Source: Candidatus Electronema halotolerans (lineage in GTDB: Bacteria; Desulfobacterota; Desulfobulbia; Desulfobulbales; Desulfobulbaceae). Taken from it: a stretch of 32,000 nucleotides of DNA. The stretch is from positions 2,070,001-2,102,000 of the forward strand of contig OW818675.1 in assembly GCA_942493095.1 (NCBI GenBank). The letters run 5' to 3'. Position 1 is the stretch's first letter, and every line of letters starts with the position of its first letter. Of this stretch, positions 5,908 to 32,000 are shown in pieces. The notes below the pieces were generated by a model. It saw only the letters and a program-made list of their open reading frames with translations, did no database searches and was not told the DNA's origin. The position numbers were made by a program, and so were the translations under genes.

Positions 5908-5938
5908 GGAAGAAAACTAATCTGTGGAGGATGTCGCT

Positions 5939-7414
5939 ATGAAAAAAATTTTCCTGTTGAGCGCGCTGGCCGCTGCCGCCGCCATGCCGGGAACCGCTTC
6001 TGCCAATCTGCTGCTGGACCTGCCGCCAATTCTGGCGGGGCAACCATGTTGCAATCCTTGTGAAACAACTTGCATCAAACCCTGCACCACCTGCACCACC
6101 TGCTGCGGAACAACCTGCATGGACAGCAGCACAACTTGTTCAATTTGCTGCTATGGCACATGCAGCACCACAACATGTTCTGACCCTAAATGCACAGTAG
6201 ATACAGTAGCGACGGATTGCGGCGGAGCTGACAAATTTTGCTGCGGTGGCCAATGCAGTGACACCGCATGTCAATGCACAGAGGCGACGCAAGAAGCCGA
6301 TTGCGGCACTGGCAACTATTGCTGCGATGGCGTATGCAACGCTACTTCATGTCCTGAATGCGCAGCAAATACTGATTGCACCACTGGGGATTTACAATAT
6401 TGCAGCTCTGGTCGATGCGTTGAATGCACACAGAATTCTCATTGCGATGAGGCCAATGGCGAACAGTGCTTCTCTGGCCAATGTCGTGTTCCAAGTGACA
6501 GTACATTGAACGACACTGGTATAATGTGGTCCGGCAAGACATCAACAGATGGAAATGATGATAATTGCGTTGACACTAATCAAGACTGTGGTATAAAAAA
6601 CGAATTTAGTTTCACTGCATCAGGGGATTGTGTTCAGGACAACGTCACAGGTCTTACTTGGTCACCAGATCAGGGAACTGCTGTTTGGACTGGTATTGCG
6701 AGCAAAGCAACCTCTGCAAAAAACAGCAGCTTATGCGGCAAGACAGACTGGCGTGCCCCAACCCTGAAGGAACTATTGAGCATAGTTTCTTATAACGATA
6801 TGTCTTCCACCCCGCTTGTCGATTCCAGCTTCTCTATAACACTCAAGACTGATAAGCCTTATTGGAGCGGAACATCTACAAGCGATTCAACAAAAGCATG
6901 GGGTGCCAGTTTTTTAAGTGGTTGGTCATCGCAACTCGCGAAAAGCGACAGTTATAATGTGATTCTGGTTTCCGGCGCAACAACTCCCACGCCCAGCTTT
7001 TCAGTTGATGATACAGCAGGAACTGTTACAGACAACAACACCAAGCTGATATGGACAAAATGCTTGGCGGGCTACTCTGGAACCGATTGCGGGACAACAG
7101 GCACCCAAACAACATTTACTTGGGCAGAAGCCTTGACTTACGCTGCCTCTGCTGGCCCTGACTGGCGGCTGCCTAATCTCAAAGAGCTTCAGTCCATTGT
7201 TAAGGAGGATGCTTCAAAGCCTGCAATAGACAGTAAGTTCCCGAACGCTAACCACAGCGTGTGGACATCTTCACCCTCGTCTCTAACAGGCAGTGTCGGC
7301 GGTGTCACGAAATGGAAATCATGGATTATTGACTTTTCATCTGGCAGCATTGGAGATTCCTTCCGGGATAACGCTCTTCGCGTCCGCCTCGTGAAAGATG
7401 CCCCGGCCAACTGA
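5939..7414 (+). CDS. secreted cysteine-rich repeat protein with two DUF1566 (Lcl C-terminal-like) domains
   Basis: GGAGG lies 8 nt upstream of ATG 5939. Signal peptide MKKIFLLSALAAAAAMPGTASA. There are 34 Cys between ORF-track residues 42 and 187, including four DC-x-CC-x-C-x-C type repeats. Two copies of the DUF1566 hallmark are present (TGLTW...DWRAPTLKELLSIV and KLIWTKC...DWRLPNLKELQSIV). Confidence 0.8.
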   Translation: MKKIFLLSALAAAAAMPGTASANLLLDLPPILAGQPCCNPCETTCIKPCTTCTTCCGTTCMDSSTTCSICCYGTCSTTTCSDPKCTVDTVATDCGGADKFCCGGQCSDTACQCTEATQEADCGTGNYCCDGVCNATSCPECAANTDCTTGDLQYCSSGRCVECTQNSHCDEANGEQCFSGQCRVPSDSTLNDTGIMWSGKTSTDGNDDNCVDTNQDCGIKNEFSFTASGDCVQDNVTGLTWSPDQGTAVWTGIASKATSAKNSSLCGKTDWRAPTLKELLSIVSYNDMSSTPLVDSSFSITLKTDKPYWSGTSTSDSTKAWGASFLSGWSSQLAKSDSYNVILVSGATTPTPSFSVDDTAGTVTDNNTKLIWTKCLAGYSGTDCGTTGTQTTFTWAEALTYAASAGPDWRLPNLKELQSIVKEDASKPAIDSKFPNANHSVWTSSPSSLTGSVGGVTKWKSWIIDFSSGSIGDSFRDNALRVRLVKDAPAN

Positions 7415-8216: not shown

Positions 8217-8825
8217 TCACGAAAAATCCCGCTGATGCAGCAACGTGTAGGTAAACTTGTTGCCAAAGGCCGCTTTCCCAGCCTTGCACTTCAGGATGAA
8301 GTCAGCAAACTGCCGCTGATCTTCAAAGACCTGACAGCCTGCCGAGAACTTCTGCTTCTGCACATACTCATCCGTGGTGCGATGGATGTTAATGCCGAAC
8401 TTGCCGGTTTGGGTGCTGGAGGCGACAAGGTTCAGCTTGTCGTCCCGGTTGTCATCCCGATACACTGTCACTTCGCCCAGCCGCTGGCACAGGGCTAAGT
8501 GGCCGCTCCGCAGGCCCCGGTTGTGAACATCGAGCTTGTACGCGCCCCGATACTGGCCTTCCTTGAGAATCGCCGTGCCGCGCCAGTTGACCGGATGCTT
8601 CAAATAGCTGATGCTGGGATCAGTGGTGATGTGATAATAGTAGATTTCCCAGATGCCGCAGAATCTGTGAAACACGCAGAGGGTGTCATTGAACAGACCC
8701 GGAGTCGGGTCTGAGGAGCGGATGCCGACGATATTGAGATTCCAGTCAATCTCAGGCGTGTCATAGACCTTGCAGCCCTTGGCCTGCATGACCTTGATCA
8801 CTTCTTCGACAGAAGGTCTGAACAT
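8217..8825 (-). CDS. leaderless YkuD-fold (L,D-transpeptidase/L,D-peptidase-like) protein
   Basis: GAGGAG SD lies 17 nt after the upstream stop. The motif GINIHRTTDEYVQKQKFSAGCQVF fits the YkuD catalytic pattern H-x(14-17)-[ST]-x-G-C. NLNIVGIRS and the C-terminal FTYTLL resemble phage/prophage members of this family as I recall them. No signal peptide is visible. Confidence 0.55.
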   Translation of the reverse strand: MFRPSVEEVIKVMQAKGCKVYDTPEIDWNLNIVGIRSSDPTPGLFNDTLCVFHRFCGIWEIYYYHITTDPSISYLKHPVNWRGTAILKEGQYRGAYKLDVHNRGLRSGHLALCQRLGEVTVYRDDNRDDKLNLVASSTQTGKFGINIHRTTDEYVQKQKFSAGCQVFEDQRQFADFILKCKAGKAAFGNKFTYTLLHQRDFS

Positions 8826-8842
8826 GATTGCTTCTCCTCAGC

Positions 8843-10810
8843 TCAAGCGTATTGCTCTTTCAAGCGGGCCAGCAACTTGCCGACATGAATGTCCGGCGGG
8901 TTGAGCGGCCCCCAGTCCACCGTGGTGTGGGCACTGTGATCCGGGTCAATGACATTGCGCAGTCGCTGCTCTTGGTCATACCAACGCCGCTTGTCTGAGC
9001 CGTCCGGGCAGGAGGCAGCCCCTGTGTCGCCCCAGCGCAGCTCAGGGCAATGGTAAGGATCAAAGGAGAGCTTGAAGAGCCTGTCCATGAGGTCGCCTAA
9101 ATTCAGCGTCACCTTTGCGCCAGCGGAATTACTGTAGCGGATTTGCATGCTGGCAGTGCTTGTCTGCCAGATAGCATCGTATTCCCGCACCAAGGTGCTG
9201 ACACTGCCGCTGAACTCGTAAGGATGATTGCCACCAGCAACTGCTGTGACGCTCTGCGTGATCAGGTTGCACAGCCCGCGAATCTGGGCCTTGAGACGCG
9301 CATCCCGGCCCGGCGTGGAATAAGACTCCCACTCGCCGTCTGCGCCGTAAATATTGTAGGGCAGGCTGGACGGATGCGCTTTCCTGTCAATGCCTTGAGC
9401 AATTGCCGCTTCCACTGAGGCCACCCGCTCCTGCAAGGCTTCGTCCAAGGCGGCCAGCTGCTGCCGCAGCTCGTGAACCGGATCAATCCTGCCGCTGCCT
9501 GTGGCCAGCATCCGCTTGACCCATTGATGATAGTTGAGATCAAGGCCGTCAACATGATAGCTGGACTGGCACTGACTCTGGCTGCTGTCAAAAAAGCGTG
9601 AATTGCGGTTCGAGGTCAGAGTGAAGCTGCCGCTGCTGCTCACTTCCTGATGCCGCCACTTGCGGAAGCCGCCGCCCTGCTTGCAATAGCCCCGCGACAG
9701 ATATTCGCCAAAGCGTTTGCTGGTCAGGCTGTTGTCCGGGTGGGCATCAACAAAGCGGACTGCACCGTCAGCCTCCACTTTTGAAACCACCAAGAGATGA
9801 CCGTTGGCATCATAGTAAATAGTGCCGGGAACGATGCTTTCACGATTCACCTGACAGAGGTAGGTGTCGGTCTTCTCCGTGGTCCAGAAGAAACGGAAAA
9901 ATCCGCTGTGGATGCTGTTGGAAATTGCTCTGGCCAAGGAGGCGAAACTGGAATACTGGAGAAAGGAGCTGCGCTTGCCCGGCTTGTTGTTATTGGTATA
10001 GCGCCCGCCGGAAATCGTCACGTTGAAGGAAAATGGCAGCCGTTTTTTATAGCTGAAATAGGCCCGCAGGAGATATGGCAGGTCGGCGCAGTCGCAATAG
10101 ATGGAATTGTTGCGATCTTCGTCCGAATAGAGACTGTTGCCCGCAGGATTGCGCAGACAGGCGGCTAACGAGCCTTTCCGGTCAGCAAAAAGCTGCTCCA
10201 CCCAGCGGGAATATTCCGCTTCATAACTGTCGCTCCACTGATGCCGGGCCGTCCAAGCCGCGCCTGCGCCGCCAACGCTGATTTCCCCGCCGGGATTGCC
10301 CGGAGGCTCAACAGGAGGAGGATTGCCGCCAGGATTGACTGCTGCCGCAGTGAGTTCCCGCCATGTTCTGCCGCCCACGTCAATTCTGCCGTCCGGGCGG
10401 GAGAGAAAGCCCTGCTGAAAATCCTGAATCGCGGCAATCAGTTCGGCGGAAACCTGATCACTGACCGGCAGCGGGCTGCTAATTTTGTTGAACAAGGCAT
10501 AAACAATGCGGACATCCTGCGGACGATTTTGCCCGCCTTCGCCGACAGAGCCAGTGATTTCACTGCCGGAACCTTCTACAGCGGCGGTGAGTTCCCGCCA
10601 CGTTCTGCCGCCCACATCAATTCTGCCGTCCGGGCGGGAGAGAAAGCCCTGCTGAAAATCCCGAATCGCGGCAATCAGTTCGGCGGAAACTTGATCACTG
10701 ACGGCCAGCGGACTGCTGCGAGTCTTGTTGAAGAGCGCATAGACTGTGCGCACATCCTCGGCCCGGTTCTGGCCGCCCTCACCCACTGAACCACTGATGG
10801 AAACTGGCAT
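8843..10810 (-). CDS. leaderless protein: two PG-binding-like modules, a Pro/Gly linker and a ~470-aa uncharacterised region with a possible papain-like Cys/His site
   Basis: AGGAGG SD. Residues 6-76 and 86-155 are near-identical repeats (SVGEGGQNR..DVR.VYALFNK...DFQQGFLSRPDGRIDVGGRTWRELTAA) that resemble PG_binding_1. The linker is NPGGNPPPVEPPGNPGG. Candidate catalytic Cys is in IYCDCADLPYLLRAYF and candidate His in PGTIYYDANGHLLVVSKVEADGAVRFVDAHPD. Confidence 0.7.
   Translation of the reverse strand: MPVSISGSVGEGGQNRAEDVRTVYALFNKTRSSPLAVSDQVSAELIAAIRDFQQGFLSRPDGRIDVGGRTWRELTAAVEGSGSEITGSVGEGGQNRPQDVRIVYALFNKISSPLPVSDQVSAELIAAIQDFQQGFLSRPDGRIDVGGRTWRELTAAAVNPGGNPPPVEPPGNPGGEISVGGAGAAWTARHQWSDSYEAEYSRWVEQLFADRKGSLAACLRNPAGNSLYSDEDRNNSIYCDCADLPYLLRAYFSYKKRLPFSFNVTISGGRYTNNNKPGKRSSFLQYSSFASLARAISNSIHSGFFRFFWTTEKTDTYLCQVNRESIVPGTIYYDANGHLLVVSKVEADGAVRFVDAHPDNSLTSKRFGEYLSRGYCKQGGGFRKWRHQEVSSSGSFTLTSNRNSRFFDSSQSQCQSSYHVDGLDLNYHQWVKRMLATGSGRIDPVHELRQQLAALDEALQERVASVEAAIAQGIDRKAHPSSLPYNIYGADGEWESYSTPGRDARLKAQIRGLCNLITQSVTAVAGGNHPYEFSGSVSTLVREYDAIWQTSTASMQIRYSNSAGAKVTLNLGDLMDRLFKLSFDPYHCPELRWGDTGAASCPDGSDKRRWYDQEQRLRNVIDPDHSAHTTVDWGPLNPPDIHVGKLLARLKEQYA
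10346..10795 (-). repeat. tandem 237-bp (79-codon) duplication encoding the two PG-binding-like modules of the 655-aa protein
   Basis: Hand alignment of 10351-10465 against 10588-10702 gives 111 of 115 identical bases. The N-terminal halves of the modules are more diverged. Confidence 0.85.
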
Positions 10811-10834
10811 GTTCTCCTCCTGTTGATCTGCTTT

Positions 10835-11245
10835 TTATTCGCCAATTCGGCCAAGCTGAAACTGCTGGAGCTGTTCCGTCAACCTGCCCTGTTCATCCCG
10901 GTATTCGACAATCAGCCCAACCAGCTCCTCTGCCCCTGTTTCTGGAACAAGCTCGCGGCAGTCTGAGGAATAATATTCCTGCCCGGCAATGGGCGAATAA
11001 TCCGCCTCGCCGAGCAGCACCTCCACTTCAGCGCGGGCCATGCCTTTGCGCAGATGCTTGACCAGCATGGCAAGACTGGCATAATCTTTTTTGGCCTTGT
11101 AGCTGCTGCTTGCCTCCTGCGGCTCTTGCGCATGACAGGCGCAGGCCGCCAGCAGGAGCATGGCCAGATAAAGCAGGCGCAGCAGCCAGCGGCTATGGTC
11201 TGGCAAAGCTGAATCCCCACTGTTTGAGCTGGTTGATGAAATCAT
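10835..11245 (-). CDS. small lipoprotein with a BamE/SmpA_OmlA-like segment
   Basis: Lipobox LLLAAC preceded by HSRWLLRLLYLAM. The mature part contains LRKGMARAEVEVLLGEADYSP (BamE-like). The start is ambiguous. ATG 11245 overlaps the upstream gene by 53 nt. TTG 11206, preceded by GTGGGGA, would give a classical 22-aa lipoprotein signal. Confidence 0.65.
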   Translation of the reverse strand: MISSTSSNSGDSALPDHSRWLLRLLYLAMLLLAACACHAQEPQEASSSYKAKKDYASLAMLVKHLRKGMARAEVEVLLGEADYSPIAGQEYYSSDCRELVPETGAEELVGLIVEYRDEQGRLTEQLQQFQLGRIGE

Positions 11246-12257
11246 CAAGATCGTCGGCAGTGTCTGGCAGGACGTGTATCAGGACCATGAATTCGCGCTG
11301 ATGCTGTTTCCTCGCAAACTCGCGTTCAACCATGTTCCGTTTGCTGGGGCCGATGCCTTTGGGCGATTTCCAGTCCTCGGTGTCTATGTCCCAATTTTCG
11401 ATGCTCAGGGACAGTTCCGCTGCGACTGCTGCTAATTCAGGATCATAAGGCCGCCAGCCGCCTGCGCCATAAGGCGGACGAATCTTTGTTGGTGTCACTC
11501 CGGCAGCCTTTCTGATGCTTTCCTGCGTTTTCTCCAGCTCCTTCCGCACCGCCGCTTTGGACAAATTGGCCAAATTCGGATGGGTGTAAGAATGATTCTG
11601 CACCTTGTGCCCCTGCTCGGCAATCTCTTTCACCGCTGCCGGATTGCTGTCAACTTCCTGGCCAAGAACGTAAAATTCCGCCTTGATGCCGTGACGGGCC
11701 AAGGTGCTGAGAATGGAGCGCAGGGCATTGGTTGGCGCGGGGCCGTCATCAAAGGAGAGCGTGACAGCCTTGCCGCTTCCTCCTGCCGGAGTTGTCAGCC
11801 GCCGCCATGTGCCGCCGCCCACATCAATTCTGCCGTCAGGATGGGACATGAAGGTTTTCTGCAAATCCCTGATCGCCTGCAGCAGCTCGTCTGAGACCTG
11901 ATCGCTGAATGCCAGCGGTCGTGACAGAATTTTATTGAACAGGGCATAGATCAGCCGCACATCCTGCGGGCGGTTCTGGCCGCCCTGCCCTACTGAGCCG
12001 CTGAGTTCCTCAGTTTCCGGTCGTTCCGCCGCCGCAGTGAGTTCCCGCCACGTCCTGCCGTTGACATCAATCCTGCCGTCAGGATGCGAGAGAAAGCCTT
12101 TCTGGAAATCCAGAATCGCCTGAAGCAGCGCATCAGTGACTTGGCTGCTGACTGGCAGAGCTGTGGATAAAATTTTGTTGAACAGTTCATAAACTGTCCG
12201 CACATCTTCGGCATTGTTGATGCCGCCCTGCCCGACTGAGCCGGTAAGAGATGCCAT
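11193..12257 (-). CDS. leaderless protein: two PG-binding-like modules fused to a CE4/NodB polysaccharide (peptidoglycan) deacetylase domain
   Basis: AAGGAGG SD. Modules occupy residues 4-75 and 86-155. All five CE4 motifs are visible: SFDDGP, HSYTHP, IRPPYG, IDTEDW, VLIHVLPD. No signal peptide or TM segment is visible. Confidence 0.85.
   Translation of the reverse strand: MASLTGSVGQGGINNAEDVRTVYELFNKILSTALPVSSQVTDALLQAILDFQKGFLSHPDGRIDVNGRTWRELTAAAERPETEELSGSVGQGGQNRPQDVRLIYALFNKILSRPLAFSDQVSDELLQAIRDLQKTFMSHPDGRIDVGGGTWRRLTTPAGGSGKAVTLSFDDGPAPTNALRSILSTLARHGIKAEFYVLGQEVDSNPAAVKEIAEQGHKVQNHSYTHPNLANLSKAAVRKELEKTQESIRKAAGVTPTKIRPPYGAGGWRPYDPELAAVAAELSLSIENWDIDTEDWKSPKGIGPSKRNMVEREFARKQHQREFMVLIHVLPDTADDLDDFINQLKQWGFSFARP
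11793..12248 (-). repeat. two diverged copies of the same PG-binding-like module, in the deacetylase gene
   Basis: Protein-level matches to the 655-aa protein modules: GSVGQGG.N..DVR.(V/I)Y.LFNKIL, DFQKGFLSHPDGRIDVNGRTWRELTAA and DLQKTFMSHPDGRIDVGGGTWRRLT. DNA identity is clearly lower than within the 655-aa gene. Confidence 0.8.
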
Positions 12258-12305
12258 TGTCTTCCTCCTTTCCAGATGACAGCTTGCAAATATAGCAAGA
12301 TGGTA

Positions 12306-13352: not shown

Positions 13353-13469
13353 CTCAGAGCGGGCTTGTTCTGTGTTGATGGCAAGGGCGAGCGGGACATT
13401 TCGCGCCAAGGTTGCGGCAAGACAGAGGCCTGCACTTGGAACTTGAATTCACCTTGACTGTATTGATCG

Positions 13470-14483
13470 TCATTTTAAATGATAACGATCACATATGGCT
13501 GCTTCATTTGAATTACATGCTTTTTTGTATGTTTTACAAAATATACTATAGTCAGTCAAAAAATTATTTCTATTTACAGCATGATAACGACAAAGATAGC
13601 AGTTTCTAATAGGAACGAGTTTCTGCTGGGCGATATGTACTTGCTCAATAAACAAAGAACCTCGTACTAAACCATTAATCTCTAAGTAATCATCATGATG
13701 GTGATCTCTGATTAGATTAACGTAGACAATTTTTTTGTCATTTTTTTGAATATAAGTATGAATACTACTCAATGTTCCATGATCAAGGTATGCCTTTCCT
13801 GAAACATAAACGTAAAACGCAAAATACATCTTTTTTGCACATCGACACTGGCTATCCGGCACCGCTTTTACCTGCGGAGAAAATCCTATGAACTTAGAAT
13901 GTTTACTGCTTATTTTTGCGGATTTTATCTCTTCCACATCCTCATCTTTTTCTATGGAAATTTCTATTATCCTTTTTCCTGAATGGATTTTTTTCTCAGA
14001 AAGAAAATGAGATACGGCTACTTCAATGTATATAACATCACCGGGTCTCGTTACACTATGTAACGAAATATCTGGAATAAATTGACCGTCTCGACTCTCA
14101 ATATTTATTTCTGTATAATATTTAGTTAAGTCGTATCTTTGGGTATATTCCCCAATGTTGCATGTTCGGCAAGTTATCTTTTTATATTTATCACAAATTT
14201 TCGGCTCATTTAATTCTATTAAAAAAGGATTTCCATTTTTTAGGCATTCTTCATAAGTTTCCTTAAAAACCTGCTTGGCAAGACGATGCAGATAGGTTTC
14301 ACCATTACATTCAACCTGCGCTTTATGACTGAAATGAGGCTGTCGTATCTCACCATTCACACGAGCAATAAGCAACTGTCCGCATGATAAACAGGTATAT
14401 TTGTCAGCAATCTTTTCCCCAGCTAAAGATTCTGCTGTCACTACTTCACCTGAAGAATTCAGGGCATACCTATAACGAATCAT
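13470..14483 (-). CDS. CoiA-like protein: N-terminal zinc ribbon, PD-(D/E)xK-type nuclease core and a Cys-rich C-terminal extension
   Basis: YALNSSGEVV...YTCLSCGQLLIARVNGEIRQPHFSHKAQVEC..ETYLHRLAKQ follows the CoiA N-terminal pattern (CxxC ... HFxH ... H..K). FIPDISL...VIYIEVAVSH is a candidate D...E-x-x nuclease motif. The C-terminus holds CYLCRYH...CKTYKKACNSNEAAICDRY. The gene is strikingly AT-rich; for example 13501-13560 has 15 G+C in 60 nt. Confidence 0.45.
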   Translation of the reverse strand: MIRYRYALNSSGEVVTAESLAGEKIADKYTCLSCGQLLIARVNGEIRQPHFSHKAQVECNGETYLHRLAKQVFKETYEECLKNGNPFLIELNEPKICDKYKKITCRTCNIGEYTQRYDLTKYYTEINIESRDGQFIPDISLHSVTRPGDVIYIEVAVSHFLSEKKIHSGKRIIEISIEKDEDVEEIKSAKISSKHSKFIGFSPQVKAVPDSQCRCAKKMYFAFYVYVSGKAYLDHGTLSSIHTYIQKNDKKIVYVNLIRDHHHDDYLEINGLVRGSLFIEQVHIAQQKLVPIRNCYLCRYHAVNRNNFLTDYSIFCKTYKKACNSNEAAICDRYHLK

Positions 14484-14603
14484 ATTAACTGAGTCATGTA
14501 AAGTACGGCATCCCGCACCAGAAAAAGATGGAATGCACCCTGCCGGTCAGGCCGCTTTAGGATAGCATATCAAAACAAAGAACATCCCGCACTCATTTTT
14601 TGC

Positions 14604-14873
14604 TTACGCCATCCTCTGCGAATCCACATACCGCTGAAGAATATCGTTCAGCTTGTCCTGCCAGCCTTTGCCGCAGCTTCTGAAGAACGAAACAACTTCA
14701 TGATTAAGACTGAGCGTGACGCGCTCCCGGCTCGGCATCTCTTGCCCTGCCGGACGCATCCTGCTGATTTCCTCTTCCTCCAAGGGAGGATTGTCTGGAT
14801 CAGACAAGGCGGCATTGGTCAGCTCCTCATCAGTCATGGCATCAACTTTATCCCAATCTGTTGCTGAACGCAT
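14604..14873 (-). CDS. BrnA-like (CopG/RHH-type) antitoxin with no adjacent toxin gene
   Basis: MRSATDWDKVDAMTDEELTNAALSDPDNPP...RVTLSLNHEVVSFFRSCGKGWQDKLNDILQRYV matches the BrnA pattern (TDW..vDamtDee ... v.l.ld.dv..wf...G.gyq..iN..Lr.yv). An alternative GTG start is at 14903. Confidence 0.7.
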   Translation of the reverse strand: MRSATDWDKVDAMTDEELTNAALSDPDNPPLEEEEISRMRPAGQEMPSRERVTLSLNHEVVSFFRSCGKGWQDKLNDILQRYVDSQRMA

Positions 14874-14906
14874 TTTCTTCAATTCATCCGCAGTGCAGGT
14901 CACAGT

Positions 14907-14920
14907 GTGTAATTTTACAC
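14907..14920. promoter_or_regulatory. palindromic candidate operator with an embedded -10 upstream of the BrnA-like gene
   Basis: GTGTAA-TT-TTACAC forms perfect 6-bp arms. On the minus strand it reads GTGTAAAATTACAC and contains TAAAAT, 34-47 nt upstream of ATG 14873. Confidence 0.35.
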
Positions 14921-14989
14921 GTTTCTGCCGTCTTTCTCACGTCCAATATTGGAACTCTGGAACAGCAGAGCGGAAGAACTGCATCAACC

Positions 14990-15017
14990 GCACGGGCAGA
15001 CCCTTGCCTGCCCGTGC
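14990..15017 (-). terminator. hairpin downstream of serC
   Basis: 10-bp perfect stem GCACGGGCAG / CTGCCCGTGC with an 8-nt loop. No clear U-run follows on the minus strand. Confidence 0.3.
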
Positions 15018-22883: not shown

Positions 22884-23033
22884 ATGACAGTAGCTGAGAT
22901 GTTTGCAGATTTCCTTGATAATCTAAAAGTAGATAATGCAGATAAAATCAGCCTGCGTTATGGAGAGATTACTGCCAGCTTGAACAAAAAATTCAGAGAG
23001 TCTGAATCCACATTCTTAAAACGAGGGCTTTTC
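22884..23033 (+). pseudogene. possible 5' remnant of a nucleotidyltransferase (SMODS/CD-NTase-like N-terminal helix), open in frame into vapB
   Basis: MTVAEMFADFLDNLKVDNADKISLRYGEITASLNKKFRESES resembles the F..F...i.l......i..ry..it..Ln pattern at the start of these NTases. It ends before any GS/DxD catalytic motif. No SD is present and the region is AT-rich. Confidence 0.3.
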
Positions 23034-23324
23034 ATGAATATCACATTAACGCCAGACATTGAGCAGGTGCTGCGCCAAGCAGCAATAAAACAGGGGGCAA
23101 CTGTTGAATCAATCGTCCTGAAAACACTTCGAGAGTGTTTTTTCCAAAAGGAGAGTAAACAACAGAATTGTTCCAAGATGAACAGTTTGGCTGACATGCT
23201 GGAAGGATATATCGGCACAATTGACAGCGGAGAAATTATTCAAGGCGGTGCGCAGATGTCCAAAAACAGCGGGAAAAAATTTGCCGACATCCTTGCGGAA
23301 AAATACCGGCAGGGAAAAATATGA
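23034..23324 (+). CDS. VapB-like antitoxin
   Basis: GAGGG SD lies 8 nt upstream of ATG 23034. It has an MNITLTPDIEQVLRQAAIKQGATVESIVLKTL RHH-like N-terminus and overlaps the downstream PIN gene by 4 nt (ATGA). Confidence 0.6.
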   Translation: MNITLTPDIEQVLRQAAIKQGATVESIVLKTLRECFFQKESKQQNCSKMNSLADMLEGYIGTIDSGEIIQGGAQMSKNSGKKFADILAEKYRQGKI

Positions 23325-26405: not shown

Positions 26406-29400
26406 TCAGTCGGGCAATGCCGCTCTGCTCTGGTATTGTTTGAAATTCTCCGCCTGCTCAAAAATTTCCTTATACACCTCATCCCGGTCAACCGGCGGAT
26501 AGTCGTTCTCAGCCAGCAGGATGATCAAATCTGCTTTCAATTCAGCTTTCACATCCTCACGCTGGCTCCAGTCGGTATATTTGCTCTTGTCGTCAACAAC
26601 AACTTTGACTTCCTTGGCCAACAGGAGGAGCTTGTCTTCCGGGTAGGCAAAATCATATTTATGGGCCAAGGCCTTGAGAATATCATAAAACGCCTTTTCT
26701 TCAAGGTCGATGCCCAAATCTCCATAAGATTCCTTTTCCTTTTTCAGCGCGGCAATTAGATCGTAAATCTCATCAGTGAAGTCTTCCAGCACTTCGCTTC
26801 TCAATATATCATCTTCCTTGCGCTCATTGTACCGCTCCACCAAGTCTTTAAACTTTTTTGAAAAATCAACACCCTTAATTTTATTGACCTTCTTGAAATC
26901 TTCAATTGCCTTGGCCAAAAGCTGCTGGAGAATTTTCAGTTTCGTGTTGGGCAGTTTGATCTTGTCAATTTTGGCCAAATAGTCATCATCAAAAAGGTCA
27001 TGCTCCTTGCCGCCGTCCTCGCCCATTTTGAAAATTTCTTCCACACCGTCGCTGGCAAGGGCATCCTTGATCATCTCCCGCACCTTAGCATTCATCTGGG
27101 CAAGATCAGGAGCTGTTCCCTTGGTCAGTTTGAAGATAATCGAACGCACAGCCAGATACAAATGAATATGGTCGCGCTCATTCTGGCTGAACCTGTCGGT
27201 ACCGCAGCAGATATCATAAGCAGCCTTGAGCCGTTTCACTAACGCTATGAAGCGTTTTTCCTGCGCATCAGTGATCATGGCAAATTCTGCCGCTCTGTTG
27301 AGACAGCATAGCTGTTCATTGGGAGTGCCAGTAAAATACAGAGAAGTATCAAACGGATAAAAGAGTTTACCTAACAAGTCCAGATGATCTTTAACGACTG
27401 TAATGGACTGACTGATTTCCTCAAAGTTGGTGCTGTCCATTTTTGAGTATTGCGCCAGAGCCTGATTCATCTGCCCTTTGATGCCGATATAATCAACCAC
27501 CAGCCCCTTTTCTTTGCCCTCAAACCTGCGGTTGACGCGGGAAATGGTCTGAATCAACGTGTGCCGCTGCACTGGCTTGTCAATATACATGGTGTCAAGA
27601 AAGGGCACGTCAAAGCCGGTCAGCCACATATCCACGACAATGGCGATCTTGAAATTGGATTTGCCGCTTTTGAACTGCCGGTCCAGTTCCTTGCGCCAGT
27701 CCTTGCTGCCGAGCAGGTCATACAGCTCTTTGGGATCATCTTGGCTGCGGGTCATGATCATCTTGAGCCGCTCCATCGGCATGATCTCTTTGCGCTCGTT
27801 TTCCGTCAGTTCTGCCCCTTCCTCGCAGACCTTGACCTCAGCCCATGCAGGACACAGGGCAATGATTTCTTTGTACAAATTCCAAGCAATCTTGCGGCTG
27901 GAGCAGACAAACACAGCCTTGCCTTTGACCGTCGCGCCTTCCTTCACCCGCGCCTCGTAATGCCTGACAAAATCATCAGCCAAGGCGCGAATCCGATCCG
28001 GGTCGCCGAGAATAGCGTTCATTTTGGCAGTGGCCTTTTTGCTCTCCTCAATCTGGTATTCGCCCGCCCCTTGTTCAGCGCATTGGGCGTAATAGTCCTC
28101 AATTTCCTCCAGCTTGGCATTGTCAAGCAGCACCTTGGCGGCCCGGCCTTCATAGACAATGCGCACCGTGATCTCATCCTTGACCGATTCTGTCATGGTG
28201 TAGGCATCCACCACTGGGCCGAACACATCCAAGGTCGCGTCAATGGGCGTGCCAGTGAAGCCAATGTATGTGGCATTGGGCAGAGAATCATGGAGATACT
28301 TGGCAAAGCCGTAGCTGCGCCGCAGCCCTTGTTCCGTGACCCGCACCTTTTGCTCCAGATTGAGCTGGCTGCGGTGCGCCTCGTCGGAAATGCAGATCAC
28401 ATTGTTGCGCTCAGTGAGCAAGTCCGTGTCTTCAGTAAACTTGTGAATGGTGGTCAGGAACACGCCGCCGCTGTTCCGGCCTTGCAAGAGTTCCCGGAGC
28501 TGGACCCGGCTGGCAACGCTGATCACAGCCTCGTCGCCGATATAGCCCTTGGCCGCCACAAACTGGGCTGAAAGCTGGTCGTCAAGATCAGTGCGGTCGG
28601 TGATCAAAACAATGGTGGGACTGGCGAATTCCACGCTTTTCATCAGCAGGCGGGTGAGAAAGAGCATGGTGAAGCTCTTGCCGCAGCCAGTGGCTCCGAA
28701 ATAGGTGCCGCCTTTGCCGTCTCCGTGCGGGCGGCGATGCGCCTTGATATTTTGAAAGAGTTTCTTGGCGGCGTAATACTGGGGATAGCGGCAGAGGATT
28801 TTCTCGTCTTTCTTGGAACTGTCTGGAAAATAAATAAAATTGCGGATAATGTCGCGCAGCCGGTCTTGGTTGAACAAGCCCTTGATCATGGTGAAGAGCG
28901 AGTCAATGCCGTCCTTGTCCTTCAGCTCGCTGCCGTCTGTTTTCCGCCAAGCGTAAAAGAACTCGTACTGGGCAAAAAAAGAACCAGCCTTGTTGTTCAC
29001 CCCGTCGCTGATCACGCAAAAGGCGTTGTATTTGAACAGTTCCGGGATGTCGCGGCGATAGCGTGTTGTAAGCTGGACATACGCATCATGGATGGTCGCC
29101 TCTTCGCGGATTGCGCTTTTGAATTCAAAGACCACCAAGGGCAGGCCGTTGATGTAAAGAATCGCGTCCGGGATGCGCTTCTCATAGCCCGTGATTTCCA
29201 ACTGGCTGACGAGTTTGAAGATGTTCTGGCCGCTGCCGTAGCGGGCAGGTGCTTCAGCAGTCACGGCAATCAGCTCGGACGCAGCCGGGGCGCGGAACTC
29301 GCCCAAGTCGGAAGAGTCAATGAGCTGGATATAAATATCTTTTTGGCTGCGGTCTTCCCGTTTGAGCAGGAAGCCGTCGGCAACCATTTTCATGATCGCC

Positions 29401-29636
29401 TTGTTGGATTCGTAGAGATCAGAGGCGGGGAAGGTTTCTAAGCGGCGGATGATGGAAGCAATTTCGCTGGGAGTGATCTTTTGTTCCGCATAGCGGCGGG
29501 CAAGGTATTGGCTCAGATCGTCTTTGAGCAGTACATCGCCGGGATCGCGGCTGATTTTTTCACCTGGAAGATGAAGATAGCCTTGCTTGTCCAGCAATTC
29601 GATGATGGCTTGTTCGAGCCGCGCTTCGGTGAACAT
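26406..29636 (-). CDS. hsdR: Type I restriction enzyme R subunit
   Basis: 1076 aa. HsdR N-terminal nuclease region (IPDAILYINGLPLVVFEFK). Walker A in FGATGCGKSFT and a DEAH box (ISDEAHRSQ). Helicase C motifs are present (TGFDVP, QTISRVNR). Confidence 0.93.
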   Translation of the reverse strand: MFTEARLEQAIIELLDKQGYLHLPGEKISRDPGDVLLKDDLSQYLARRYAEQKITPSEIASIIRRLETFPASDLYESNKAIMKMVADGFLLKREDRSQKDIYIQLIDSSDLGEFRAPAASELIAVTAEAPARYGSGQNIFKLVSQLEITGYEKRIPDAILYINGLPLVVFEFKSAIREEATIHDAYVQLTTRYRRDIPELFKYNAFCVISDGVNNKAGSFFAQYEFFYAWRKTDGSELKDKDGIDSLFTMIKGLFNQDRLRDIIRNFIYFPDSSKKDEKILCRYPQYYAAKKLFQNIKAHRRPHGDGKGGTYFGATGCGKSFTMLFLTRLLMKSVEFASPTIVLITDRTDLDDQLSAQFVAAKGYIGDEAVISVASRVQLRELLQGRNSGGVFLTTIHKFTEDTDLLTERNNVICISDEAHRSQLNLEQKVRVTEQGLRRSYGFAKYLHDSLPNATYIGFTGTPIDATLDVFGPVVDAYTMTESVKDEITVRIVYEGRAAKVLLDNAKLEEIEDYYAQCAEQGAGEYQIEESKKATAKMNAILGDPDRIRALADDFVRHYEARVKEGATVKGKAVFVCSSRKIAWNLYKEIIALCPAWAEVKVCEEGAELTENERKEIMPMERLKMIMTRSQDDPKELYDLLGSKDWRKELDRQFKSGKSNFKIAIVVDMWLTGFDVPFLDTMYIDKPVQRHTLIQTISRVNRRFEGKEKGLVVDYIGIKGQMNQALAQYSKMDSTNFEEISQSITVVKDHLDLLGKLFYPFDTSLYFTGTPNEQLCCLNRAAEFAMITDAQEKRFIALVKRLKAAYDICCGTDRFSQNERDHIHLYLAVRSIIFKLTKGTAPDLAQMNAKVREMIKDALASDGVEEIFKMGEDGGKEHDLFDDDYLAKIDKIKLPNTKLKILQQLLAKAIEDFKKVNKIKGVDFSKKFKDLVERYNERKEDDILRSEVLEDFTDEIYDLIAALKKEKESYGDLGIDLEEKAFYDILKALAHKYDFAYPEDKLLLLAKEVKVVVDDKSKYTDWSQREDVKAELKADLIILLAENDYPPVDRDEVYKEIFEQAENFKQYQSRAALPD

Positions 29637-29696
29637 GGGGGAAGGGGGGAAAGGGTGAAGGGGAAAGGGTGAAGAAAAAAGGGTGAAGGGTGAAGT
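29637..29696. repeat. purine-rich block on the plus strand with four GGGTGAAG copies
   Basis: GGGTGAAG occurs at 29653, 29667, 29681 and 29688. GTGAAGGGTGAAG (29683-29695) is the exact reverse complement of 30070-30082. Confidence 0.85.
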
Positions 29697-30053
29697 TTAT
29701 TTTCTTTTTTCTTTCAGTTTTCTGCATATTGTTGTGAGAATGGCGGCCAATTCATTGCATTCTTGTTTTAATCCGTCGAGGCGTGCTGATTCTATCAGTT
29801 CGGCTTCTTCAATCAGTTCGAGCCAGTACAGGCTTTCGTGTGCTTCTTTCACAGCGATGCTGTATTTGGTCAGAAAGTCGGCCTCGCTTTGTGCGCCTTC
29901 TCCTTCGGCGATATTTGCTCCGATTGATGTTCCAGAGCGAAGCAGTTGTCTGCTAAGTGTTTTGTTGATTCCCGGTTTTTGATCAAGGACTTGACAGAGT
30001 TTTACAATTCGCAGGGCAAATTTCTTTGATCGGTCTGGCAAATCACGTTTCAT
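29697..30053 (-). CDS. four-helix-bundle protein (23S rRNA intervening-sequence protein family)
   Basis: 118 aa. QLLRSGTSIGANIAEGEGAQSEADFLTKYSIAVKEAHESLYWLELI is the family signature (Ql.RsatSIgaNIaEG ... dF..k..ia..E..Et.yWL.l). Confidence 0.85.
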   Translation of the reverse strand: MKRDLPDRSKKFALRIVKLCQVLDQKPGINKTLSRQLLRSGTSIGANIAEGEGAQSEADFLTKYSIAVKEAHESLYWLELIEEAELIESARLDGLKQECNELAAILTTICRKLKEKRK

Positions 30054-30113
30054 AATTTCACCATTTATTCTTCACCCTTCACACTTTACCCTTCACACTT
30101 TACCCTTCACCTT
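30054..30113. repeat. pyrimidine-rich block on the plus strand (CTTCACCC-type), inverted partner of 29637-29696
   Basis: CTTCACCCTTCAC lies at 30070-30082. The tandem 14-mer ACACTTTACCCTTC occurs twice (30081-30108). Confidence 0.85.
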
Positions 30114-31418
30114 TCAAACTTCCCCTTTTGGAATGCGCAGTTCGCCGGAGAGGAGTTTTGGGAGCAGGGTGTCGCGGAGGGTTGCAAGTGTTTTGTTTGA
30201 GAAGCAATTTAATGAAATTTTATCAAAGTAACTTGTCCCGATCTGCAAAAAGCAATTCATAATTTTTTGTGAAGGCAGCAATATACTTGCCTCATTGACA
30301 TTTCCTTTATTGATATGCTGTTGCGCTCCGCCAGTTTGAGATGAAATAATTCCCTCTATATTGTTTGTTATCCAAAGATAGACGAACTCATTTGGAAGTT
30401 CTTCTTTTCCAAGAATTCCAACAACTGATTGATTAGCACAACATTCAATCTCGTTCAGACTAACCTGACCGAGAGTTGCTCCTGTTATGGCCAGAAGAGT
30501 TGTTCTTTTTGGTAAAAGTTTTGTCGCAGATTTTCGGACTGCTTCCTCAGTAATCAATTCTGAAGGTTCAATAACTCTAAATTCATTAACCTTACCTGAA
30601 TTTATCCAAGGAATGCTTCCATTATTCCAAAACTCCTTATTTTTACGTGCAGGAGTTCCACCAAGGATAGTTTCTAATTCATCACCAATTTTTGTAACCT
30701 CCCACCCCTTGGGAATCCAGCCCATTTCATCGATGTACACAAACTCATCAGGGAAAAGAGCACGGATTTCAGCAGGCAGCGGCTTGCGTTTGTCGCCCAA
30801 TGCAGCACGAACGGCAGCACGTTCAGCAAGCTCCTCCGGCACTTCCTTGCCGCCAGCAAGGGCATTGTCAATCACCGGGTCAAAATCAACAAACCAGCTC
30901 TTGAACAACGCCTGCGCCATCGCTTCCAATGTTTCATTCATCCGCCGATTCAATTCGATTCGGTCATCAAGAGAACCAAGAATATTGGCAATTGCTTGTT
31001 GAGTGGACCGTTCAGGAGCAAATACAAGTATCCGCTTCATATCGCCCTGTGTTAGTTTAGGACGAGTGGAACCTGATAAATAACTATTTACATCAGATAC
31101 TTGGAGTGCATAACATAGAAACCTTGTATTTGAGCTACTGTTTGCCTGCAAAATATGAGCGTGGTTATTGACCCAGAACTTTCCAGAAGCAAGAAATGCT
31201 ATAGGAGTATTGCGGCTTTTAAGATTTTCTCCGTCTTCTGCAAGCAATATATATTCTCCATCAAAAATATACGAATCTACATAATCAGCTATTCCAGAAG
31301 CTCCGTAATATGGATAAGGGCCAGACTTGCGATCCGTCTTTTTTACAGGAACTCTCATAGAATCATAAATCTCTACCAATTCTACAAGCGGTCGCTGCTC
31401 GTATAAATCATTCTCCAT
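30114..31418 (-). CDS. hsdS: Type I restriction-modification specificity subunit
   Basis: 434 aa with two target-recognition halves. These are separated by the conserved helix [18 protein letters not shown] and end in [17 protein letters not shown]. The gene is AT-rich and its start overlaps the hsdM stop. Confidence 0.9.
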
Positions 31419-32000
31419 AACCCAAGACCTCCAAATTCTTCCGAATCACCGCATCCAATTCCGCAGCTTCCCGCATCTGCTCAAACAAGGCCGCAGTCAG
31501 CTCGGACATCTTCTCCTCAAACGGCACGCCGTCATCCTCAATCTCTGCCGCGCCCACATAACGCCCCGGCGTGAGCACATAATTATGCCCCCTGATTTCC
31601 TCCAAACTCGCTGACTTGCAAAACCCGGCCCGATCTTCATACTTCACCCTTCCCTCTTCACCATTCCCCCTTCCCCCTTCCCCCTTCCAACAATGATACG
31701 TTCCCGCAATTGCAGCAATTTCCTCCTCCGAAAGATCCCGATGCACCCGGTCAACCAAACTGCCCATCTTACGGGCATCAATGAACAAAGTCTCGCCGCT
31801 GCGGTCGCGGAAACCGCGTGCAGCATCCGCTTTTTTGTTTTTGCTCAAAAACCAAAGACAAACCGGAATCTGGGTGGTGTAGAAAAGCTGGCCAGGCAGG
31901 GCGATCATGCAATCCACCAGATCGTTTTCAATGATCTTTTTCCTGATCGCGCCTTCCGTGCCAGTGGCAGTGCTCATCGAGCCGTTGGCCAGAACAAAAC
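31408..32000 (-). CDS. hsdM: Type I restriction-modification methylase subunit, C-terminal part (5' end beyond the window)
   Basis: The frame stays open to the window edge (...[49 protein letters not shown]..., [13 protein letters not shown]). Confidence 0.9.
31641..31688. repeat. CTTCACCC / CCCCCTT tract inside hsdM, related to the cassette flanks
   Basis: ACTTCACCCTTCCCTCTTCACCATTCCCCCTTCCCCCTTCCCCCTTCC. The 11-mer CTTCACCCTTC (31642-31652) is identical to 30070-30080. The tract encodes [14 protein letters not shown] on the minus strand. Confidence 0.8.

Follow-up and report, generated by a model that had tools for sequence, protein, structure and literature searches.

A conserved cable-bacterial cassette of predicted murein enzymes without export signals, with a lipoprotein encoded between them

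The modular endolysins of Gram-negative phages consist of an N-terminal PG_binding_1 module and a C-terminal catalytic domain (the KZ144/EL188 type), and Bdellovibrio has exported CE4 deacetylases of the prey wall and a deacetylation-specific lysozyme. Among the secretion systems, the X-T4SS, a type IV secretion system (T4SS), provides the documented pattern of lipoprotein immunity genes adjoining those of signal-less murein effectors (X-Tfe/X-Tfi; PMC6536674), and type VI secretion systems (T6SSs) have murein effector/immunity pairs such as Tae/Tai and Tlde1/Tldi1 (PMC9638812). The type 10 secretion systems, or T10SSs, are holin, endolysin and spanin cassettes for protein release, which derive from phage lysis cassettes and are carried on chromosomes (PMC13284979, PMC10847048). 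Here, we compare with these systems a four-gene cassette of the cable bacterium Candidatus Electronema halotolerans, located at positions 8217-12257, on the minus strand, of a 32,000-nucleotide (nt) stretch of contig OW818675.1 (assembly GCA_942493095.1, positions 2,070,001 to 2,102,000), which we call the window. In the order of transcription its genes, g1 to g4, encode a predicted peptidoglycan deacetylase, a lipoprotein, a putative cysteine peptidase or amidase and a member of a phage lysin family. Statements about function made below rest on sequence, predicted structure and gene context.

The interpretation which we tentatively favour, while giving it somewhat less than an even chance, is that the cassette encodes murein-attacking enzymes which are held in the cytoplasm and reach the wall by a Sec-independent route, accompanied by an immunity-like periplasmic lipoprotein. 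The four open reading frames (ORFs) are tightly packed on one strand, and the positions, gaps and single overlap given in a preliminary description of this stretch were all confirmed. The products of g1 (11193-12257), g3 (8843-10810) and g4 (8217-8825) are 354, 655 and 202 amino acids (aa) long, respectively. Read directly from the DNA, the intergenic gaps are 24 nt between g2 and g3 and 17 nt between g3 and g4. The longest ORF of g2 spans 10835-11248; its start is most plausibly the TTG at 11206, since a normal lipoprotein signal then results, and with this start g2 (10835-11206) encodes 123 aa and overlaps g1 by 14 nt. The same description had credited the operon with strong Shine-Dalgarno sequences. 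This is true of g1 (AAGGAGG at 12264-12270, minus strand, 6 nt 5' of the ATG), of g3 (AGGAGG, 5 nt ahead of the start) and of g4 (GAGGAG, 8 nt ahead), but g2 has only a weak GGGGA ahead of its TTG.

The evidence that carries this interpretation begins with export. No Sec, Tat or lipoprotein signal had been recognised on the three enzymes, and closer analysis agrees with this: we found no hydrophobic stretch anywhere in the products of g1, g3 and g4 (maximum 19-residue hydropathy, KD19, below 1.0), and a motif scan detected no twin-arginine motif and no lipobox. Each of the four ORFs already opens at the first start codon past an in-frame stop, therefore no upstream canonical start can supply a leader, and the possibility that alternative starts add signal peptides was ruled out. 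The absence is also conserved, as a signal peptide is present in none of the 34 cable-bacterial g3 orthologues, in comparison to 69 of the 86 homologues (80%) from other phyla; the export signal has thus been replaced by between zero and two copies of a module described below. Despite the loss of the signal, the g3 sequence stayed conserved among cable bacteria (65-98% identity). Both cable-bacterial partners, g1 and g3, bear the same module where their relatives elsewhere bear an export signal. The module is not the sole determinant of export, because E. aureum retains a g3 that lacks module and signal alike. Taken together, the loss of the Sec signal in a conserved sequence, the general lack of signals in the module family, the toxin-type and lysin-type fusions within that family and the place of g4 among the phage lysins suggest that the producer deliberately keeps these enzymes out of its own periplasm.

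The lack of signals would be just as natural if the cassette served the recycling of muropeptides in the cytoplasm, with g3 acting as an AmpD-like amidase and g4 as an LdcA-like L,D-carboxypeptidase, g1 deacetylating recycled sugars and the modules binding soluble muropeptides. In E. coli, muropeptides are recycled by the AmpD/LdcA/NagA pathway, whose steps the three activities would loosely parallel, and the best, though weak, fold match of g4 in the PDB is the L,D-carboxypeptidase Csd6. Nevertheless, we consider this explanation very improbable. All three catalytic families act outside the cytoplasm elsewhere (80% of the g3-domain homologues are Sec-exported, g4 homologues stand in phage lysis cassettes, and the closest kin of the CE4 domain are wall deacetylases), polymeric murein is needed by the muramidase, SLT and M23 domains found in the module family, and an exported lipoprotein would be left unexplained.

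The module shared by the two larger enzymes occurs in tandem in each of them, at 12030-12251 and 11793-12005 in g1 and at 10577-10804 and 10343-10558 in g3 (all on the minus strand). The four copies are 63-84% identical pairwise, which is far beyond chance; the first copy of g1, with the signature SVGxGGxN...DV...FQ...PDGRIDxxGxTW, shares 63-69% with the others, and the two copies of g3 share 84%. Taken singly, the copies of the window score just below the gathering score of PG_binding_1 (PF01471), with 14.5 bits for the second copy of g1 and 20.7 bits for the first copy of g3 against a cut-off of 23 bits. However, a profile built from the four copies picks up stand-alone PF01471 proteins of about 50% identity, and of 95 diverse proteins retrieved with the module profile, 86 pass PF01471. 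Because of these two results we regard the module, on sequence grounds, as a subtype of PG_binding_1 with the signature SVGxGGxN...DV..VQ.LLN...FQ...PDGRIDxGGxTW, and the preliminary description, which had called it PG-binding-like, is supported to this extent. AlphaFold2 places three helices in each g3 module (residues 17-31, 39-57 and 71-78 in the first, 97-108, 118-136 and 150-158 in the second) at a predicted local distance difference test (pLDDT) score of only 24-66.

An exhaustive profile search found the module in at least 1,537 representative protein clusters, often as two to four tandem copies. Its fusion partners are nearly all directed at murein and are interchangeable: muramidase PF11860, M15 variants, SLT, M23, CHAP and VanY, and further CE4, GH108, pesticin, Tae4, phage lysozyme and M74. 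Only 4 of 144 module-bearing proteins have an N-terminus that resembles a signal peptide (97% are without one), and this polymorphic, signal-less family has, to our knowledge, not been described as a class. In 30 of its proteins the module comes first, which is also the layout of g1 and g3; many open with recurrent helical leaders, namely LHNNPxDTS (13 proteins), DGxIDxxE (16), LAxxYKxI (7) and PPLQL (5), which may be trafficking or partner-binding regions. Six distant module proteins, whose loci were sampled, occupy orphan positions amid housekeeping genes. In one further locus (L090, 6867-12154) two adjacent paralogous genes combine the module with muramidase PF11860, and the 297-aa product of the opposite-strand gene between them, which has no Pfam match, might be a candidate immunity protein. 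On viral contigs the module is very rare; only four loci carry it, one of the two inspected having it on an M23 endolysin-like protein, and on this count we rejected the idea that it is a phage endolysin domain.

Gene g3 had been described as two modules, a Pro/Gly linker and about 470 residues with a candidate papain-like Cys/His pair, and both its translation and the module copies bear this architecture out. The linker, AAVNPGGNPPPVEPPGNPGGEISVGGAGA (10256-10342, minus strand, residues about 157-185), is modelled at pLDDT below 50, whereas residues about 185-655, which include a helical C-terminal extension, exceed 90. The catalytic region (8846-10255, minus strand) belongs to an unnamed family and has no sequence match in Pfam, NCBIfam, PHROG or the PDB. 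Across 56 family sequences Cys241 (codon 10088-10090, motif DCADLP), His338 and His357/Asp359 are invariant. In the confident model Cys241 stands at the N-terminus of a helix (residues 243-256), His338 lies on a strand (338-345), and a further strand follows at 351-356. CHAP is the commonest Pfam match within the family, in 26 of the 56 members, though below the gathering score (best E=0.0065), and these weak matches align at profile positions 50-79, the part that includes the His strand. When the model was compared with the PDB by Foldseek, the top matches were again of the CHAP type, namely the CHAP amidase 5t1q and the phage Andhra tail tip, and were not significant (E=0.4 over 66 residues); a profile of the family found no match among PDB sequences. 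A papain-like core is thus supported by the invariant residues and the weak CHAP matches, and we read g3 as a probable divergent murein peptidase or amidase of the CHAP or NlpC/P60 type with a helical extension.

Outside cable bacteria, at least 592 species-representative genomes encode the g3 domain; they belong to Myxococcota, Bdellovibrionota, Riflebacteria, Alphaproteobacteria and Flavobacteriaceae. The g3 family is abundant in predatory lineages, and none of its domains was found on viral contigs. A CE4 gene lies within about 2 kb of the g3-domain gene in 9 of 80 such loci (about 11%), and in three Bdellovibrionales loci the two are operonic, with gaps of 7-80 nt and an export signal on both products (a signal peptide or lipobox on the CE4 protein). 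The pairing of deacetylase and peptidase is therefore older than the cable bacteria. In this respect the cassette resembles the Bdellovibrio type of pairing, as CE4 adjoins the g3-domain gene in the three Bdellovibrionales loci and also in several Alphaproteobacteria; it differs in that those proteins have signal peptides and no module, and neither g2 nor g4 is found near them.

The partner enzyme is easily identified. Gene g1 matches Polysacc_deac_1 (PF01522) with E=1.7e-33 and 115.7 bits (cut-off 23.1), and it holds the five CE4 motifs in order (SFDDG, HSYTHP, RPPYG, DTEDW and LIH), including the Asp-His-His metal triad. Pfam and the motif scan thus corroborate the reading of g1 as two modules followed by a complete CE4/NodB domain. 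Its closest solved relatives are peptidoglycan N-acetylglucosamine/N-acetylmuramic acid deacetylases of the PgdA/PdaC type (E about 1e-27 to 1e-25).

The gene that separates g1 from g3 is g2, whose description as a small lipobox lipoprotein proved correct: a hydrophobic h-region leads to the lipobox LAAC at residues 19-22, and the lipobox-type cysteine is retained in all 12 orthologues. The mature domain gives weak matches to OsmE, BamE and DUF3192 profiles. Its best PDB match is BtiO, a periplasmic T6SS immunity protein (PMC12541434), with a marginal profile E-value of 0.044. In about 12 loci g2 is always found between g1 and g3, and it overlaps the CE4 gene not only in the window (by the 14 nt given above) but also in the E. 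scaldis locus (L001) and in a metagenome locus (L178). It evolves faster than the enzymes, at 48-81% identity in comparison to 62-92%. Since g2 is coupled to g1 and always lies between module-bearing enzymes, it fits the position of an immunity gene as known from X-T4SS and T6SS loci (PMC6536674, PMC9638812), and its position and predicted localisation make it a candidate immunity protein.

The last gene, g4, is the one for which the preliminary description needs to be changed. It had been called a YkuD-fold protein on the basis of a His/SxGC-type motif. The motif stands: H101, H148 and S161-A-G-C164-Q-V are conserved, and the spacing H148-x12-SAGC164QV is kept across the family. The fold was not confirmed by Pfam, PDB profile, Foldseek or hhalign. 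The YkuD model (PF03734) matches none of 44 family members, even at E<=1, and no YkuD chain appears at E<=10 when the family profile is run against the PDB. An hhalign comparison with E. coli LdtA-D/DpaA gave a probability of 0.14% and E=0.43, with a sole short alignment that puts SAGC on the YkuD SxGC in register. The AlphaFold2 model of g4 (pLDDT 94.8) has Csd6, a YkuD-domain L,D-carboxypeptidase, as its best PDB fold match at E=0.048 and a template modelling (TM) score of 0.37, and the 50 PDB fold matches listed include no entry of LdtMt2, YcbB or Tlde1a. YkuD membership is thus unsupported beyond the motif.

The relatives of g4 are instead found among phages. While neither Pfam nor NCBIfam contains a match, and neither the sequence nor the family profile finds anything in the PDB, g4 matches PHROG families phrog_3000 (5e-26) and phrog_33083, annotated 'endolysin' (1.3e-10), and its model matches phage proteins of BFVD at E 5e-22 to 2e-10 and TM 0.73-0.85, one of them named 'Lysin' (E=6.5e-15, TM 0.78). 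The family comprises 7,385 homologues, with at least 564 viral loci in IMG/VR and 24 GenBank phages, in which the homologues are stand-alone proteins of 190-215 aa. A small transmembrane protein is encoded directly beside the g4 homologue in 43 of 66 phage loci (65%), in comparison to 210 of 692 other genes of these loci (30%), an odds ratio of 4.3 whose significance is optimistic because the phage loci are not independent; in six loci a neighbour has the u-spanin layout, a lipobox with a C-terminal transmembrane segment. Judged from these genes, the phage context of the family is a lysis cassette, and membership of a phage lysin family describes g4 better than the label of a YkuD enzyme. With a confident predicted fold that has no PDB counterpart (best TM 0.37), the family of g4 is, as far as models tell, a structurally undescribed one of phage lysins; the g3 domain and the g4 family alike have no Pfam model and no solved relative. 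One of the homologues is gp35 of the P2-like Pseudoalteromonas phage ACA1 (locus L007, 4965-5585). Its gene lies between those of the tail tube and the tail chaperone, and the protein, which is annotated as hypothetical, may be a lysin of ACA1 that has gone unrecognised.

A phage-type lysin in a chromosomal cassette raises the question whether the whole cassette is a domesticated lysis module similar to a T10SS. The three enzymes would then be endolysins serving programmed lysis or a secretion that depends on a holin, the holin would be encoded elsewhere, and g2 would be an outer-membrane accessory without an immunity function; the cell would use the cassette for autolysis, for severing filaments, for forming vesicles or for releasing its contents. 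T10SSs do derive from phage lysis cassettes and lie on chromosomes (PMC13284979, PMC10847048), and they share with our cassette the domesticated, signal-less peptidoglycan hydrolase and the lipoprotein within the cassette. The cassette also resembles the modular Gram-negative endolysins: g1 and g3 have the same layout, a PG-binding module followed by a catalytic domain, and lack signals, the g4 family is abundant in phages and their lysis cassettes, and one of the rare viral contigs with the cassette's own module bears it on an M23-type endolysin-like protein. However, the cassette is chromosomal and conserved, and in ten loci no holin or spanin is encoded in or near it, no small transmembrane protein lies in or beside it, and no cargo gene is linked to it. 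The product of g2 is not spanin-like, as its domain is globular and of the BamE type and a C-terminal transmembrane segment is lacking. The module is present in only 4 viral loci, as against at least 564 for g4, and the g3 domain in none. Moreover, endolysins do not usually have the activity of a CE4 deacetylase, and the globular lipoprotein is an additional part of the cassette. Because of the missing holin and spanin we do not classify the cassette as a phage lysis cassette or T10SS, and an origin as a lysis module of this kind appears unlikely to us, if less so than the remaining alternatives.

The distribution of the cassette was assessed in about 20 loci of cable bacteria (Candidatus Electrothrix and Candidatus Electronema). 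Full-length g3 homologues (65-98% identity) are found exclusively in these two genera, and a metagenome scan with a narrow module alignment returned cable-bacterial cassettes only. In every locus long enough to judge, that is, in the window, E. scaldis, E. laxa, Electronema KV and eight metagenome contigs, one or two modules with CE4, then g2, then one or two modules with the g3 domain follow each other in this order. The question of synteny across genomes is thereby answered positively within cable bacteria, where the triad is conserved in about 12 loci. Four loci have g4 behind g3, whereas at least five have no g4, so that the triad of g1, g2 and g3 is the operon core and g4 an accessory member. 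The cassette G+C content (0.55-0.58) equals that of the flanks, on which ground a recent horizontal acquisition was rejected, and from these sequences the cassette appears to be confined to cable bacteria, among which it is passed on by vertical inheritance.

The loci differ in detail. E. aureum GS has a module-less, signal-less g3 and g4 at its locus, without g1 and g2. In Electronema sp. KV (JAPEVH010000031.1, 4845-6101) a fifth gene, between the epimerase and CE4 genes, combines one N-terminal module with a 333-aa domain that has no Pfam match; the enzyme content of the cassette therefore varies between cable bacteria. In E. scaldis (CP138355, 10268-12319) the cassette lacks g4 and is followed by a toxin-antitoxin pair of the TacA/acetyltransferase type, tatA/B and tatC. 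The flanking genes vary by species, and those of ten cable-bacterial loci include no gene for a small membrane protein.

Vertical conservation of the cassette across Electrothrix and Electronema, with a G+C content equal to that of the flanks, speaks for a housekeeping function, such as a lineage-specific remodelling of the wall around the periplasmic conductive fibres or at cell junctions. The enzymes would then leave the cell by non-classical export, and g2 would be an activator or scaffold at the outer membrane. The g3 domain and its CE4 neighbour indeed look like ordinary exported enzymes in other phyla, and the envelope of cable bacteria is unusual (PMC7873302). On the other hand, there is no reason why an enzyme needed at all times in the periplasm should give up its Sec signal, and not one of the 34 orthologues has retained it. 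The module family is signal-less overall and has toxin-type domains (Tae4 and pesticin) among its fusions, g4 is a phage lysin, and E. aureum GS does without g1 and g2 at the locus. Such a housekeeping role is, in our assessment, decidedly unlikely.

Returning to the favoured interpretation of cytoplasm-held enzymes with an immunity-like lipoprotein, the following course of events can be envisaged. The CE4 deacetylase g1, the CHAP-like peptidase or amidase g3 and, where present, the phage-type lysin g4 would be synthesized in the cytoplasm without contact with the sacculus. They would reach murein only by an event independent of Sec and Tat, either a membrane lesion or lysis of the producer or a translocator encoded elsewhere. 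Once there, g1 and g3 would be tethered to the wall by their PG_binding_1-type modules, and deacetylase and peptidase may work as a functional pair. The lipoprotein g2, translationally coupled to g1 and exported by the Sec and Lol pathways, would be their partner in the periplasm, either protecting from them like an immunity protein or controlling them, and this role would matter especially in a filament whose cells have one periplasm in common.

In this logic the cassette resembles the effector/immunity pairs of the X-T4SS and T6SS. In both cases signal-less murein hydrolases are accompanied by an adjacent periplasmic lipoprotein and catalytic domains are swapped on a common scaffold, and Tae4 and pesticin-type domains are among the fusions of the module family. 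Unlike those effectors, g1, g3 and g4 match no XVIPCD, MIX, PAAR, Rhs or VgrG-fusion domain (Pfam, E<=1). There are no apparatus genes nearby, several enzymes share the cassette with one lipoprotein, and inheritance is vertical within one clade. As neither a recognised trafficking domain nor apparatus genes are present, the enzymes cannot be filed as T6SS or X-T4SS effectors. The preliminary description had gone further and stated that the cassette fits no described system. It is true that the defining delivery component of each system is missing here, but the statement is too strong, as architecture and logic do match those of endolysins, of X-T4SS and T6SS pairs and of T10SSs.

Several observations weigh against the interpretation that we favour. 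As already noted in the preliminary description, no T6SS, extracellular contractile injection system (eCIS), holin or phage structural gene was found in the 32-kb window; neither was a spanin or T4SS gene, and the same is true of the surroundings of the cassette in ten cable-bacterial loci and of the neighbourhood of the six distant module proteins. A single lipoprotein would have to serve two or three enzymes, although effectors usually have an immunity gene each, and its marginal match to BtiO spans a generic BamE-like motif. Deacetylation of peptidoglycan is not toxic by itself. Finally, the cassette is conserved across two genera instead of being patchy, which is unusual for weapons. Our searches of the literature on cable bacteria yielded no mention of this cassette and no report of T6SS or contractile systems.

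If the favoured interpretation is true, two wall enzymes that are ordinarily exported became cytoplasm-held and wall-tethering and acquired a periplasmic partner, which would make a clean evolutionary example of how a pair of housekeeping enzymes turns into a lysin or weapon. A bolder view, which we hold to be speculative and improbable, is that the SVGxGGxN...PDGRIDxGGxTW subtype marks murein hydrolases of a large and so far undescribed class, which would reach the wall independently of Sec and Tat, and that the cassette is, in cable bacteria, a system linked to multicellularity. From a store in the cytoplasm, the enzymes would be set free into the periplasm common to the filament, in order to remove damaged cells, sever filaments or attack attached bacteria, while the g2 lipoprotein protects the neighbouring cells. 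This would amount to a new delivery or lysis logic and not to a variant of T6SS, T4SS or phage lysis. In any case the analysis exposes three uncharacterised families: the CHAP-like one in at least 592 species, the phage lysin one, of over 7,000 members, for which no relative in fold has been solved, and the signal-less module hydrolases in at least 1,537 clusters. The cassette also offers a way into the study, in cable bacteria, of envelope turnover, of how filaments fragment and of interactions with other bacteria.

The remaining features concern the ends of the operon and its surroundings. A weak terminator-like hairpin with a T-run (8229-8245, minus strand) at the 3' end of g4 is a possible operon end; it is a consensus match only, and the number of such sites is not above shuffled expectation. 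A promoter consensus scan gave nothing convincing. A gene for an NAD-dependent epimerase/3-beta-HSD, on the same strand, stands upstream of g1 and ends at a distance of 48 nt from it; among the relatives, only Electronema sp. KV shares this upstream neighbour. The window otherwise carries housekeeping genes (pheT, an aroB-like gene, and those of RNase R, relA/spoT, rtcB and groEL) and a type I restriction-modification system, with no prophage, T6SS or eCIS machinery, and such a context for the cassette was rejected. A known anti-phage defence system was rejected as well, since PADLOC models matched neither g1 to g4 nor their neighbours.

Elsewhere in the window, an island of low G+C (13400-15000; 0.43-0.45 in comparison to about 0.57) contains a gene for a 337-aa protein with CoiA_N and DUF7828 domains (13470-14483), and it is probably an insertion between the epimerase and aminotransferase genes. 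A 146-aa ORF at 22884-23324, whose match to the SMODS nucleotidyltransferase domain is confined to the first 45 residues of that domain, may be the remnant of a defence gene similar to those of cyclic-oligonucleotide-based anti-phage signalling systems (CBASS). The restriction-modification system (26406-31977) comprises hsdR, hsdS and a partial hsdM, and a gene for a 23S rRNA intervening-sequence protein (29697-30053) is inserted between hsdR and hsdS. On the opposite strand and two genes away from the cassette, a 496-aa secreted protein (5924-7414) combines a long Cys-rich N-terminal region with two Lcl_C (DUF1566) domains.

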